Positions 721 to 30,280 of a stretch of 30,280 nt of DNA are shown in pieces. The notes under the pieces were generated by a model. It did no database searches. It was not told the origin of the DNA and saw nothing but the letters and a program-made list of their open reading frames with translations. The position numbers were made by a program, and so were the translations under genes. Positions within the stretch are counted from its first letter, which is position 1. Every line of letters starts with the position of its first letter. This DNA is from a virus. Lineage: Duplodnaviria; Caudoviricetes. The stretch covers positions 1 to 30,280 of IMG/VR virus record IMGVR_UViG_3300033512_000173; one strand, 5' to 3'.

Positions 721-788
721 TCTTAGACTGAACAGTGATGCAGTTGTTAGATGGATTCTTTAGCCGTAAAACAAGTTTTACGGACACG
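721..788 (+). repeat. 68-bp dispersed repeat, copy 1 (cassette upstream site + leader hairpin)
   Basis: 52/68 identical without gaps to 30116..30183; hairpin CCGTAAAAC-AA-GTTTTACGG at 764..783. Confidence 0.9.
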
Positions 789-1065
789 AACTAAACCAAG
801 GAGAAAGAAAATGGAAAAGAGATTAGCGAACCTCAAGGAATTGCTGGCGGTACAAGGTTGCGATGGTAATTGGAACTATGACCAGTACATGAGAGGTATG
901 TATAACGGGATGGAATTGGCTGTTGCTGTTTTAGAGGGACGGAATCCTGTTTATCGGGATGCCCCCAAAAAGTCATTTACTAAATGGTTTAAGCGTACTT
1001 TCCATAAGCCACATCTAACAACTGCTTCAACGTCGACAAGCTAACGCTTGCGAGTTAAGCAAATG
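747..1065 (+). mobile_element. Integron-type gene cassette (single ORF + attC)
   Basis: Begins G|TTAGATG (746..753), the exact complement of CATCTAAC (1012..1019); ends with an attC at G|TTAATC (1065). Confidence 0.8.
811..1044 (+). CDS. Cassette-borne hypothetical protein (77 aa, GNWNYDQYMRGMYNG motif)
   Basis: AGGAG RBS at 799..803 favours ATG 811 over 751. The tail HLTTASTSTS is encoded by the attC left arm and the stop lies in the attC loop. Confidence 0.8.
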   Translation: MEKRLANLKELLAVQGCDGNWNYDQYMRGMYNGMELAVAVLEGRNPVYRDAPKKSFTKWFKRTFHKPHLTTASTSTS

Positions 1066-1071
1066 TTAATC
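1013..1071 (+). other. attC: attC recombination site (59-base element)
   Basis: R'' ATCTAAC, 5-nt spacer, L'' CTTCAACG with extra C, CAAGC/GCTTG stem with TAAC loop, L' AGTTAAG, 5-nt spacer, R' GTTAATC. Confidence 0.85.
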
Positions 1072-1965: not shown

Positions 1966-2823
1966 ATGGCAAAAATTGATATCTGGATGCCTATTTACAT
2001 AGGCGATTATCTAGGCGATACAATAGAATTATCAGCCGAAGAACATGGGGCATATTTACTTTTGTTAATGCATTATTGGATTAAAAAGGGTGAAATTGGA
2101 TGCGACATTGAAAGACTTTCAAGGGTTTGCAAGTCAGATATTAAAACCTGTAGCTTTATTCTAGGTTATTACTTTACCCTAGATAACGGTAAATATAAAA
2201 ATAAGAGAGCTGATATAGAAATGGTAAATGCAGAAAAAAGACGCTTAATATCCTCTGTAAACGGTAAAAAAGGGGGAAGACCTGCCAAAAATAACCTGCA
2301 AGAAAGCTATGGGTTATCTTCCGGGTTATGTGCAGGTAACCTGCAAGAAAGCTCTTCATCTTCATCTTCATCTTCATCTTTACCAACAACAACACCTTTA
2401 AAACCAGTAAGAGAGGAATCGCTCACTCATGAAAATCCAGTAACCTTAAATGATGGGAGCAAGAGACTTTCAAAAGCTCAAGGGGCATGGAACTATGCAC
2501 AGTTAAAACCAGCTTCAAGAATAATGCCGGTTCAATTCAAGCCGGATGATCTTTCGGGATGCCTTGCGGTTTTACAGGTATATACTGACACAGAGATTCA
2601 AGACGCTATCACAAACTATGCAGAAATTAAGAACAGCCCTGATTATGAAATAGGGTTTGAATACGGTTCTTTTCAAGGATTTATGAAAAGCGGTGTTGAG
2701 AAGTTTATAAAAGACTCTGACCCCTGGGATAAATTCAGGAAAGAAGTTGCTCAAAACATCCCTAAAACCGATGTTTACCAGTTTAATCCAAACGATTTTG
2801 ACGAAGAAGGGAATCTAAAATGA
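1966..2823 (+). CDS. Phage replication initiator, YdaU/DUF1376-like
   Basis: N-terminal WMPIYIGDYLGDT..LSAEEHGAYLLLLMHYW and NGKKGGRP motifs; Ser-rich linker; GGAG RBS supports ATG 1966. Confidence 0.8.
   Translation: MAKIDIWMPIYIGDYLGDTIELSAEEHGAYLLLLMHYWIKKGEIGCDIERLSRVCKSDIKTCSFILGYYFTLDNGKYKNKRADIEMVNAEKRRLISSVNGKKGGRPAKNNLQESYGLSSGLCAGNLQESSSSSSSSSSLPTTTPLKPVREESLTHENPVTLNDGSKRLSKAQGAWNYAQLKPASRIMPVQFKPDDLSGCLAVLQVYTDTEIQDAITNYAEIKNSPDYEIGFEYGSFQGFMKSGVEKFIKDSDPWDKFRKEVAQNIPKTDVYQFNPNDFDEEGNLK
2292..2379. repeat. Iteron-like repeats inside the initiator gene (putative origin)
   Basis: TAACCTGCAAGAAAGCT at 2292 and 2337; inverted GGGTTA half-sites at 2311 and 2323; palindrome TGCAGGT-A-ACCTGCA 2331..2345; then (TCTTCA)n. 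Confidence 0.6.
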
Positions 2824-3251
2824 AAACAGTACTAGACTTTATGACAGCCTTAAATGACTATTTTGATGGGTTAAAGAACAAGACCGTTTCAAGCCTGATT
2901 ATGCAAGAACTGGCATATATTAAGCCCTCTGATCTTGATAAACTGTTTAGACAGCTTATAATTTCACAGCCTGCAAGCTGGAAGCCGGATCTTAAAGCCA
3001 TAATTGAATCAATCAAGGCAGCAAAGATTATACCGCTTCAAGAGCCTGGACAAGAAGAAGCTTGCCCTGTATGCAATGAAGTCAATCATAGTTCTGGAAT
3101 ATGCCGAAACTGTTGCTATGACCCTTCAAGAGATGGCACTCCAGAGCAATATCAAAAATGGTGGACAGACTGGAAAGCAGGGATTGAACCTCACTACGAC
3201 ATAAAAGACGTTCTTTCAGGGATTGAACGGAAAATTAAAATACAGGTTTGA
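2820..3251 (+). CDS. Zn-ribbon replication accessory protein; paralog of 68..505
   Basis: ATGA overlap with the initiator; CPVC...GICRNCCYDP. Confidence 0.75.
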   Translation: MKTVLDFMTALNDYFDGLKNKTVSSLIMQELAYIKPSDLDKLFRQLIISQPASWKPDLKAIIESIKAAKIIPLQEPGQEEACPVCNEVNHSSGICRNCCYDPSRDGTPEQYQKWWTDWKAGIEPHYDIKDVLSGIERKIKIQV

Positions 3252-18571: not shown

Positions 18572-20658
18572 TGGCGTTTAACTGGGAAGATGTAAAAGCG
18601 GGCGGACTTGGTGCGATTGACGAAGCTCTTTTCGGTTTGCCAGAGTATGCACTAAAAAAGCTTGGTAAGCGTCAAGAGGTTGAAGATTATATAAAAAAGA
18701 ACGAAAAAGCATATAGAACAGGTGAAACCGTTGGAACTATTGGCAGTATGTTTATTCCAATACCAGGTGCAGGGGCGGTAAAAGCTGGCACGATGGCGGC
18801 AAAGGGATTAAAAGCAGCGAAAGCCGCCGATACTGTTACTGATCTGGCACGACTGGCAAAAGGGGCGGATACTGTTTCGGATGTTGGACGGCTTATAAAA
18901 GGCGTTGACACAGCGGCGGATATAGGGAAAGCCGCCGATACTGGAATAAAACTTAAAAAAAACATAGATTTTAGCAAACTTGCGACAAGGGGCGCTCTTG
19001 CAGGCGGTGCAGAATCCGGTGTCAGGGGAATAACTTCTGAAAAAACGCCAGCCGAAATACTCAAAGATATACAGACAGGTGCGTTATTTGGAGCCGGGGG
19101 AGGTGTAGTTGGCGGTGTTTTAGGCAATAACCTTAAAAGGTATGCCTCAGAAGCTGCAGAAGGTGCGGAAAAGGCTTATTTAGGTACAACCGATCTGGTT
19201 AGAAAGCAAGCTCTTGCACACTTAAAAGATGTTGCAGGAGCAGGAGCGAAAGGGTTTGGCAAATTAAGCGTTGCGGATAAAGCCAGAAGGGAACTTGTAA
19301 GGGTAGGAAAAGAAATAGGCGCACATATTCCCGGTAAAATGGACGAAGCTATATTTGAAAATAAAAAAATGTGGAAAGCCCTTGATGATGTAGTTGAAAA
19401 CGCTATGCCTAATGTCAGAGGGTCGGAAATATATTCAGAGGCTTTAAACAAGTTGGACATGGACGCTTTATATGCTCAGTTTCCAAAGGCAGAGGTAGAC
19501 GGCTTTCTAAAACAAGTATTAGTTGACGGTGTAGACCGTTCAGGGCTTGCGAATTCAAGGGCTTTTCTTAGTGATCTAATTGACGCCGCAAATAATAAAA
19601 GCACAATAAAAAGCGGTAAAGATGCAGCCACACAGCGGATGCAAAAAGAAATTGCAAAAAGCTTAAAAACAGGCGTTGACGAAATTGTCATGGATACCGC
19701 AGAAAAAGCTGGGTTAAACATAGACTTTAATAAACTTAAAAAAGATTATTTACCAATGAGAGCCTTTGCAGAATCTGGGGCTATTGATTCCATAGTTCCA
19801 ACTAAAACCTTTCTGGGTTCTCCAACTATGGAAAAACTGGCAATGTCAGGGGCGGGAAGTGCTTTAGGCTTTTCTCAAGGGGACGATCTTGAAACAAGGC
19901 TTAAAAATGCCGCTATTGGCGGGGTCGGTGGGTTTGCAGTTAAAAAAGGACTCGAAAAACTTATAACAAAAGGAATCGCCTCTACAGCCCCGCTTGCCGG
20001 ACTTGCAAGCGATGCCCTTGAAAAGATCGCTCCAGAAGTACTTGAAAAGGCAGGGGCAACGATTGGCGGGCAAGCCGGCTCTGTTATATCCAGAAAAGTA
20101 CTTGATGAAGTTCAACCAGAGACACCAAAGGAAGCAGAGGCAGCAGAAACAGCCGCCGTATCAGATAATGAACCGGTTTATTTAAGCCGTGTTCTGCAAA
20201 AAATGCAGGATTACGCTATTGCAAACGGCGTTGACCCTGAAAGTCAAGAATTTCAAGACTTTGCCGGTCAAGTTTATTCAGCGACAGGCGGTTTTGACCC
20301 TGAGAAAATCGGCTCAATTCTCTATACAGACCCCGGCGAGCAAGCTTCATATCTGAAAGCCCTGCAAGTTTCAAAAGGTTTGAGGGAAGTAATGCCAACA
20401 GCAACAGCTAAAAAAGCCGGATTATTTGACAAAGCAACAGCCGAGGAAGATCTGGCAAGAGGTACGGCAATTGACAAGCTTTCTGCTTTAGTTGGAGACG
20501 TTGCAAAAGAAGCGGGAACAGAGGCTTATGCTAAAAAAGCTCTGACAAAGATACTCAATTCAAATGATGATCCCGAACGAAAAGCACAACTTGTCAAGAC
20601 GTTGCTTTCTGGGTATGGTGTAGACATAGACGAGCTGGAAAGCATGGGAGTTGTATAA
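18571..20658 (+). CDS. Probable internal virion (DNA ejection) protein
   Basis: 695 aa, Ala/Gly-rich with glycine-zipper hydrophobic segments; short 13-aa repeats (KAADTVTDLARLA / KGADTVSDVGRLI). Confidence 0.6.
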   Translation: MAFNWEDVKAGGLGAIDEALFGLPEYALKKLGKRQEVEDYIKKNEKAYRTGETVGTIGSMFIPIPGAGAVKAGTMAAKGLKAAKAADTVTDLARLAKGADTVSDVGRLIKGVDTAADIGKAADTGIKLKKNIDFSKLATRGALAGGAESGVRGITSEKTPAEILKDIQTGALFGAGGGVVGGVLGNNLKRYASEAAEGAEKAYLGTTDLVRKQALAHLKDVAGAGAKGFGKLSVADKARRELVRVGKEIGAHIPGKMDEAIFENKKMWKALDDVVENAMPNVRGSEIYSEALNKLDMDALYAQFPKAEVDGFLKQVLVDGVDRSGLANSRAFLSDLIDAANNKSTIKSGKDAATQRMQKEIAKSLKTGVDEIVMDTAEKAGLNIDFNKLKKDYLPMRAFAESGAIDSIVPTKTFLGSPTMEKLAMSGAGSALGFSQGDDLETRLKNAAIGGVGGFAVKKGLEKLITKGIASTAPLAGLASDALEKIAPEVLEKAGATIGGQAGSVISRKVLDEVQPETPKEAEAAETAAVSDNEPVYLSRVLQKMQDYAIANGVDPESQEFQDFAGQVYSATGGFDPEKIGSILYTDPGEQASYLKALQVSKGLREVMPTATAKKAGLFDKATAEEDLARGTAIDKLSALVGDVAKEAGTEAYAKKALTKILNSNDDPERKAQLVKTLLSGYGVDIDELESMGVV

Positions 20659-25319: not shown

Positions 25320-26207
25320 TTAGCTTGCCGTTTTTACACGTTCAAGCAATTCTGATAACTTTACAGGGTCGCTTTCTTTTGACTCAAAGGCTTGACGAAT
25401 ATCTTTTTTCGCTGCTTCGGGGCAAGATTCTGAGCGTTCGAATTCTTCAAGGGCAAGGATAATTCCAGATATATCAACTGGAGCCGGAGCATTTAATAAA
25501 CTTTCCAGCGTTGAAATATAAACTTCTAAGTCCTCGCCGCAATCTTTCCACATAGCGGATTTTTCTTCTTTGTCAAGTCCAGCCTTTGCAGTCAACTCGG
25601 CGGCTTTTTTTACTAGATCAGGGTTTGGAGCGGTTTTTATAAAAACCGGATTTTCAGCAATCTTGACAATCTGCTCTGGTTCTTGATGCGGTGTAATGTT
25701 TTTTAAGGGTTCAAAGTCTTGCACTTCCTCGGCTAGATACATACGGTTTAAGCAAGCAGGATAAACAGCCCGAACACCTTCGGCAACGCAACGCCAAGAA
25801 AGCATAATGCCTGGCATTTTTTGCCAAGGGGTTTCCTGTCCGTTGGCACCTCTTTTGTCCCATAAGCCGGCTTTTTTAGCTCTTGAAACGTCCCATGAAA
25901 CAGTCAGAGACCCGCCTTGAGGATGCGAAAAGGTTGCCTTTGCTTCGCCGTCGGTCTTGACTAACCAATTTACACACCCGCCGGACTGTTGGAAACGAGC
26001 AAGTGCAGCTTGTCCCTTGAGAGCTGGTCGTCCTTGAATGATGTCGTATTCCATAGCTGCCAACGCCGGGTGCAAGCCCTCGGCTTGTGCAATCATCATG
26101 AGCGATAACATTTGATCTGGATTTTTCCCAAACATTCCAGAATTTGCCATACTCTTTGCCATTTGAACCAGATCACTAAAACCAATTACGCTTAAATCAT
26201 TCATCAT
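25320..26207 (-). CDS. RecT/Red-beta-like single-strand annealing recombinase
   Basis: GLHP..A...DIIQGRPAL, RAKKAGL, WQKMP..ML.WR......R.VYP, EEVQD motifs. Confidence 0.75.
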   Translation of the reverse strand: MMNDLSVIGFSDLVQMAKSMANSGMFGKNPDQMLSLMMIAQAEGLHPALAAMEYDIIQGRPALKGQAALARFQQSGGCVNWLVKTDGEAKATFSHPQGGSLTVSWDVSRAKKAGLWDKRGANGQETPWQKMPGIMLSWRCVAEGVRAVYPACLNRMYLAEEVQDFEPLKNITPHQEPEQIVKIAENPVFIKTAPNPDLVKKAAELTAKAGLDKEEKSAMWKDCGEDLEVYISTLESLLNAPAPVDISGIILALEEFERSESCPEAAKKDIRQAFESKESDPVKLSELLERVKTAS

Positions 26208-30115: not shown

Positions 30116-30183
30116 TCTTATACGGAACAAGCTAATATTTGTTGGATGGACGCTTTAGCCGTATAACTAGTTATACGGACACG
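30116..30183 (+). repeat. 68-bp dispersed repeat, copy 2
   Basis: Matches 721..788; G|TTGGATG at 30141; hairpin CCGTATAAC-TA-GTTATACGG at 30159..30178. Confidence 0.9.
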
Positions 30184-30216
30184 CGCCAAGATGCGGGCGA
30201 GTTTTCAGGAGGAAAT

Positions 30217-30280
30217 ATGAACGAATGGATTAGCGTAAAAGAACGATTACCACAAAAACCAACTTTTGACTGGGTTTTGG
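30217..30280 (+). CDS. DUF551-like protein (partial)
   Basis: AGGAGG RBS; MNEWISVKERLP N-terminal signature. Confidence 0.7.
   Translation, partial: MNEWISVKERLPQKPTFDWVL

Follow-up and report, generated by a model that had tools for sequence, protein, structure and literature searches.

Integrons have been seen as platforms for bacterial adaptation and lately as stores of anti-phage genes. In their core reaction, as given in the available part of PMC5027507, IntI recombines the folded bottom strand of an attC with attI or with another attC. Phage attC clusters are already in print, including the attC family that we describe here: in a set of 10,705 phages, Qi et al. (2023; PMC9892861) identified 17 CALINs, which they treated as sporadic captures. 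In that work attC1 and attC2 of phage TJE1 recombined with IntI1 (results and Table S3), the motif before the TJE1 array was described as a predicted terminator, and a cryptic Shewanella prophage, which contains a complete integron as well, was noted to have an attI ahead of its CALIN. In the accessible portion of Ghaly et al. (2022; PMC9668308), CALINs in Bacteria and Archaea are proposed to be served by an IntI encoded elsewhere and attI is placed immediately downstream of intI. In the accessible portion of Loot et al. (bioRxiv 2022.09.11.507474), IntI1 inserts cassettes genome-wide at GWT sites, and the section available of the report on Treponema integrons (PMC3607928) has intI transcribed toward attI. 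Apart from PMC9892861, a literature search, mostly of sources other than subscription journals, turned up no paper on attI platforms carried by phages.

The window, by which we mean the whole stretch of DNA that we analysed (30,280 nt), is the entire linear IMG/VR record IMGVR_UViG_3300033512_000173, which is 99% complete by CheckV and has genes for terminase, replication, RecT-like, exonuclease and lysis functions. The gene cassette in this phage is genuine and of the integron type, and it lies behind what is likely an attI belonging to the phage itself. The features of the two cassette regions are as follows.

722 to 748, plus strand: attI-like site 1, with an R-like direct repeat, an L box and an R box; predicted crossover G746/T747; 15.0 bits, second-best score in the window
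746 to 810, plus strand: cassette leader with R' tail, hairpin (764–783) and ribosome-binding site (799–803), of a leader family common to other phages' cassettes with unrelated genes
747 to 1065, plus strand: complete one-gene cassette, 319 bp, with 8 nt of complementarity between its R'' and its 5' end
811 to 1044, plus strand: cargo ORF behind the ribosome-binding site at 799–803, 77 aa, a small phage protein with no function assigned (phrog_23796, E = 9e-8)
1013 to 1071, plus strand: attC site, 59 nt, called from box architecture, fold and covariance model, with arms as in the attCs of Treponematales integrons and of TJE1
30117 to 30143, plus strand: attI-like site 2, near consensus; predicted crossover G30141/T30142; 22.6 bits, best score in the window
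30141 to 30280, plus strand: 5' part of a second cassette, with leader and an ORF that begins at 30217, has a weak DUF551 match and runs off the contig

With a single attC and no integrase, the window record has the composition of a SALIN. It shows one attC, fewer than two within 3 kb (the second cassette being cut by the contig end), and so differs from the phage CALINs of Qi et al. (2023) in not being one itself, while many of its relatives are.

We found that the attC has the full set of boxes: R'' (ATCTAAC, 1013–1019), a 5-nt spacer, L'' (CTTCAAC, 1025–1031), a terminal stem (1033–1053), L' (GTTAAG, 1054–1059), a 5-nt spacer and R' (GTTAATC, 1065–1071). R'' and R' fit RYYYAAC and GTTRRRY, including the invariant AAC and GTT, the folded strand has L'' paired with L', an unpaired central spacer and a terminal stem-loop, and three bases in the hairpin are unpaired (1028, 1032 and 1036). 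The bottom strand, folded as single-stranded DNA, has an energy of –13.4 kcal/mol (z = –4.06) and 0 of 200 shuffles folded as well; the top strand folds with z = –4.65. A home-built attC covariance model, which is partly circular since most of the records behind its 60 family attCs (alignment A1; 60 of 88 short attCs, all from records other than the window) were found via the window's arms, matched only 1013–1071 in the window (59.3 bits, E = 7e-13; next match 12 bits). An Rfam search gave no match for the window attC. At the 5' end of the cassette, GTTAGATG (746–753) is the exact complement of 1012–1019 and lies 319 nt upstream of the downstream GTT, and an 18-nt inverted repeat (736–753 and 1012–1029, one mismatch) was equalled in 0 of 100 shuffles. 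The preliminary description had placed an attC at 1013–1071 with a complementary 5' end 319 nt before GTT, and had named the bottom-strand fold as a check; the boxes, a fold with z near –4 and the model match bear out the site, the complementarity holds, and of the extrahelical bases the two that it named are confirmed while a third, G1032, had been overlooked.

That description also took the matched ends as the footprint of a circular intermediate, and this is supported by the wider family. Of 100 units between adjacent sites in records of phage type, 81 begin with an exact complement of their own R'', as compared to a mean of 7.6 and a maximum of 19 in a permutation null (10,000 permutations); some of the 19 units whose ends match imperfectly may contain sites that were missed. 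The attC arms covary, with 94.5% paired and 111 double changes as compared to 28 in shuffles, in sites that were pre-selected for pairing. The window's attC arms occur in 60 IMG/VR stretches from 53 contigs, frequently as part of arrays, and also in 18 cellular loci, of which 8 are titled spirochaete; the numbers of viral contigs and cellular loci are not a measure of enrichment, and the 15–45 nt gap in the search pattern excludes long host attCs. In one complete Treponemataceae chromosome (G002), a long array with these arms lies behind an intI whose product scores above the TIGR02249 cut-off. Among 50,697 curated phages, the best match to the window attC is TJE1 (87% over 53 nt); the third TJE1 attC is identical at 45 of 55 positions, and the TJE1 attCs that were tested with IntI1 only at 35 of 55 and 36 of 57. 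TJE1 resembles the window in having the same attC family, the same leader family, methyltransferase cargo and no integrase.

To locate attI-like sites, we used a conserved 24-nt motif found upstream of first cassettes, in which an R-like heptamer and an inverted L box are separated by 5 nt, with G/TT following after another 5 nt. The matrix was trained on 14 of 31 array-head rows of other phages, the rows left out being 14 that are preceded by an attC and 3 (L003, L036 and L043) without the motif. In the window, position 30141 scores highest and position 746 second, each directly 5' of a cassette leader; in 100 shuffled windows the best score averages 9.9 bits with a maximum of 19.5 and reaches 18 in 3. 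The case for attI at these array heads is one of sequence, degenerate at site 1 and near consensus at site 2. Site 2 looks intact, and the leader behind it belongs to the same family as that of TJE1's first cassette; the attC of this second cassette lies outside the record. At site 1, the last 10 nt before GTT depart from the consensus and are part of an inverted copy of the attC left arm (736–753 is identical to the reverse complement of 1012–1029 at 17 of 18 positions), so the L box is probably damaged and the site may be inactive. The spacer match at site 1 is 6 of 6, as compared to 1–4 of 6 at 24 other array heads. Site 1 is a chimera, its 3' part coming either from a template switch or from a past insertion of the top strand. 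Reading 722–753 as a second, inverted full attC was rejected because the closing arm is absent. The preliminary description missed the full 18-nt extent of the inverted repeat, the attI-like character of this flank, the hairpin leader, and the second attI-like site and cassette start (30117–30280).

When we applied the matrix to other phages, it marked the head of the array in 26 of 48 records, half of which (13) lay outside the training set. The arrays behind these heads hold 1–6 cassettes, in many phage records without IntI. The other 22 records are TJE1 (1), records with less than 650 nt upstream (7) and records with no motif (14); in these 14, with upstream DNA in view, no attI-like site exceeds 10.4 bits. 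Across 270 kb of other DNA from these phages there were 0 matches of 14 bits or more, and an independent pattern scan of IMG/VR gave 9 matches, all 9 followed by a cassette leader. In 17 of 34 host intI loci, the site picked by the phage-trained matrix is on the same strand and lies 152–208 nt past the stop codon of intI, a position that agrees with the Treponema layout in the section available of PMC3607928. Among metagenome pattern matches with at least 200 nt upstream, 24 of 104 have an IntI-like match, always on the same strand and in 21 of the 24 ending 144–166 nt before the motif (the scan covered 120 of an estimated 900 stretches). Because cellular loci place the motif behind intI, we read it as attI. 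The pattern is also common beside non-spirochaete-looking integrons, and in G044 one 80-nt attI context occurs twice with different first cassettes. In TJE1 (NC_019930.1), the "terminator" of PMC9892861 has the attI layout, one base short at the join of the record (23.5 bits with the base added), and this attI-like feature lies directly before a cassette with a leader of the window's second type; thus what is a terminator in that paper is read here as an attI common to many phages.

The cassettes behind these sites differ from those of hosts. The 81 phage cassettes have a median length of 320 bp, a 59-nt attC and 45% GC, as compared to 877 bp, 121 nt and 34% GC for 232 host cassettes (most from G002); leader hairpins are stronger and leaders longer in the phage set, and we found no protein overlap between the two sets. 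The Treponema-type sedentary chromosomal integrons (PMC3607928) share attC arms and a similar attI core with the phage platform but differ in having intI, longer cassettes and attCs, lower GC and no shared proteins. PHROGs families were matched by 29 of 80 phage cargo proteins, and these 29 include six DNA methyltransferases, two RtcB and one Mom-like protein. The window's own cargo ORF (811–1044) reads through R'' and stops within the attC loop, so that its C-terminal tail is encoded by the attC. It has 7 homologues at 67–76% identity (phage-family and metagenome relatives), no Pfam match, and Atlas leads below 0.9 that are mostly viral; a search of IMG/VR with this ORF gave a single 10-residue match, which is spurious. 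In other phages, leaders of the window's type precede six ORFs that are unrelated to one another, and the pattern of this leader occurs in 8 IMG/VR stretches, all in attC-bearing records, and in 0 of 301 genomes of G002's order. Since the same chassis of leader and attC surrounds unrelated phage genes, new cassettes may be built inside phage genomes.

These comparisons bear on the reading closest to the preliminary description, that IntI dropped a lone host cassette at a chance GWT site (attG), which would make the locus an ordinary SALIN. The record does contain one attC only, attI-like site 1 reaches only 15 bits with an altered L box, and IntI1 uses GWT sites genome-wide in the part of Loot et al. 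(bioRxiv 2022.09.11.507474) available. The window shares with SALINs the single attC, the lack of an integrase, the G/TT footprint and IntI acting in trans; as far as that part goes, it differs in its target, attG being a generic GWT unlike attI, whereas here an attI-like motif lies directly upstream of the cassette. The two best attI scores of this 30-kb record precede both cassette starts, the motif is found again where the arrays of other phages begin and downstream of intI in hosts, and both the leader and the cargo are phage-like and unmatched by any of the 232 host cassettes. We consider a chance insertion of a host cassette highly improbable, and on sequence grounds it is already largely refuted by the conserved head motif. 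Insertion at an arbitrary spot of the early region, and a host-like cassette, had been expected earlier; by its sequence the cassette is instead one of a phage-specific family and not a lone insertion, and the phage itself supplies the target, a conserved attI-like site that is present twice.

It is also conceivable that the att sites came once from a host integron and are now shuffled by phage homologous recombination between attC arms and leaders, with IntI dispensable. RecT-like and exonuclease genes are present in the window, several shared segments terminate within an attC stem or a leader and not at G/TT, one ORF is found with different leaders and attC loops, and the 14 arrays without a detectable attI fit such a process. 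On the side of IntI, cassettes that resemble one another recur in other arrays and some of them are bordered at G/TT; copies of one 284-bp cassette, 94% identical, sit in arrays that differ, and their borders fall 1 and 3 nt from G/TT. Crossovers outside G/TT would also unlink the 5' R' from R'', and the 81 units keep this match exactly; the unpaired bases and compensatory pairs of the attCs are likewise kept (in sites selected for pairing), and unrelated phages conserve an attI that would be of no use if IntI were absent. We therefore regard homologous recombination as an unlikely main route and favor recombination by IntI.

No such enzyme is encoded by the phage. A search for the tyrosine recombinase domain PF00589 gave 0 matches in this 99%-complete record, in keeping with the earlier statement that the phage lacks an integrase, and no intI lies beside the array. 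The IntI model TIGR02249 matched in 0 of 50 phage records, including 0 of 8 that are at least 90% complete. PF00589 was found in 2 of 36 records, in both cases far from the arrays and not as IntI, and 0 of 8 near-complete attC-bearing records had IntI or any PF00589 match. IntI was found in 96 of 251 genomes of G002's order. An IntI-type recombinase acting in trans, as proposed in the preliminary description, is the likeliest enzyme, and that phage attCs exist without an integrase was as such already published (PMC9892861). The idea resembles that of Ghaly et al. (PMC9668308), in which cassettes without intI can be mobilised by IntI in trans; the arrays there are cellular, and the text available of that paper contains no phage-resident attI or phage cassette pool.

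The integrase could instead come from another mobile element, such as a co-infecting phage or plasmid with intI, or from a missing part of this phage. IntI relatives are encoded in 355 IMG/VR stretches, one of which (L368:5704–7100, a viral record) carries a primase and an IntI 56% identical to that of G002 with a same-strand attI-like site about 130 nt behind it, and the window contig is linear with its second cassette cut. Against these points, the window's attC arms occur in none of the best 80 of the 355 viral IntI loci, a completeness of 99% leaves little room for a missing gene, the near-complete attC-bearing records lack IntI and PF00589 throughout, and chromosomal IntI is common in candidate hosts. 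We judge a source other than the host chromosome to be very unlikely. In two further viral records intI lies among head-packaging genes (L388, between terminase and portal with attC-like sites on the opposite strand, and L383); these are candidate complete phage integrons of another type.

That the enzyme is chromosomal and the host a spirochaete is what the shared att sites and the replication genes of provirus G028 would suggest. G028 and the window share replication genes (35–44%), and the attC locus of G028 is on a Spirochaetales-titled scaffold of a genome that has IntI. The window capsid was found in 0 of 301 Spirochaetota genomes, relatives of its terminase only at 34–43% (in 23 of 401 genomes), and a relative of the TJE1 portal in 1 of 301 (37%). 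Of the 18 cellular loci with the window's attC arms, only 8 are titled spirochaete. The recorded host of TJE1 is the actinobacterium Tetrasphaera jenkinsii, which conflicts with a spirochaete host. TJE1 has spirochaete-type att sites and 58% GC, though its recorded host is an actinobacterium.

Taken together, these data suggest that the locus is an integrase-less phage integron platform served in trans by IntI, most likely from the chromosome of a spirochaete (Treponematales-type) host, and we consider this reading probable. In the window itself we see the attC, matched cassette ends, two attI-like sites and no recombinase; in comparison with other records, the attI motif, attC arms and leader type recur at phage array heads without IntI, and the same motif lies just behind intI in cellular integrons. 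From established integron biochemistry, phage replication would expose the folded attC bottom strand to recombination by IntI: attC by attC would excise a circle, and attC by attI would integrate it at the front of the array, where R' would then form the 5' end. The promoterless cassettes would be transcribed from the upstream early operon, a reading that follows from attI site 1 beginning 4 nt after the stop of ORF 502–717 and from no plus-strand sigma-70-like promoter being called within 500–1300. Cassettes would move mainly from phage to phage, as small accessory genes that form a pool of their own, separate from the cassettes of hosts.

Two further checks named in the preliminary description yielded no usable data. 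We found no relative in which the window sites are vacant or differently filled: relatives sought via the flanking gene (68–505) gave none, and of the terminase relatives (7 loci) none spans the cassette locus, with attC by model R1 in 0 of 5. The matching sequencing runs were three contig sets with a small share, none of them RNA, and these contained no circle junction and no joint. In one contig the leader after an attC is similar without being the same; this is a junction within an array and was rejected as a cassette circle.

Integrase-less phages thus likely borrow a host enzyme and swap accessory genes by it. The part that appears to be new, from sequence comparison, is a phage-resident attI common to many phages with a distinct cassette pool. 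A wider proposal is that diverse phages of one host group purposely keep integrase-less integrons, with 1–2 attI each, a borrowed host IntI, an exchanged phage-only cassette pool that runs from DNA methyltransferases, RtcB and Mom-like genes to numerous small genes with no assigned function, and new cassettes built in phage genomes; we offer this tentatively, as a possibility to which we give somewhat less than even weight. If true, it would provide a tractable system, with TJE1 as a cultured member, for the open question of how cassettes are made, and would indicate phage genomes as a place for studying cassette birth. A phage-side platform running on host integrase would turn that machinery into a gene-shuffling device of the phage, with methyltransferases as frequent cargo, and would give a site-specific route to phage mosaicism. 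The analysis also reinterprets a published feature of a cultured phage, TJE1, and supplies an explicit attI consensus in a clade where such sites are difficult to identify.

Several other features were observed. The array of G002 (L186–L194, L096) extends over about 180 kb, and its long attC loops hold short motifs that also end phage leader hairpins, a hint that attC loops and phage leader hairpins are of common origin. Among metagenome loci (L216–L335), many cellular-looking contigs carry an attI-like motif that is highly conserved and has a longer repeat upstream; intI is absent from 40 of 48 of these loci with at least 1 kb upstream, and several keep only the last 25–50 intI codons, so solo attI platforms may be widespread. 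Two loci (L109 and L112) have attI and a leader followed by a gene with no attC, and are possibly domesticated cassettes. In the window, paralogous ORFs with CxxC motifs (68–505 and 2820–3251; 143–145 aa) flank a replication gene and have homologues in three other attC-bearing phages, and a 32-nt inverted repeat (20402–20433 and 25854–25885, 88% complementary) spans 5.4 kb. Directly after the attC (1072–1200) is a promoter-like stretch, followed by stem-loops, a T run and an HTH gene at 1217; its –35/–10-like elements were flagged by a regular expression and not by the promoter scan, and are a lead only. A promoter-like stretch after the last attC is also present in about five other phages.
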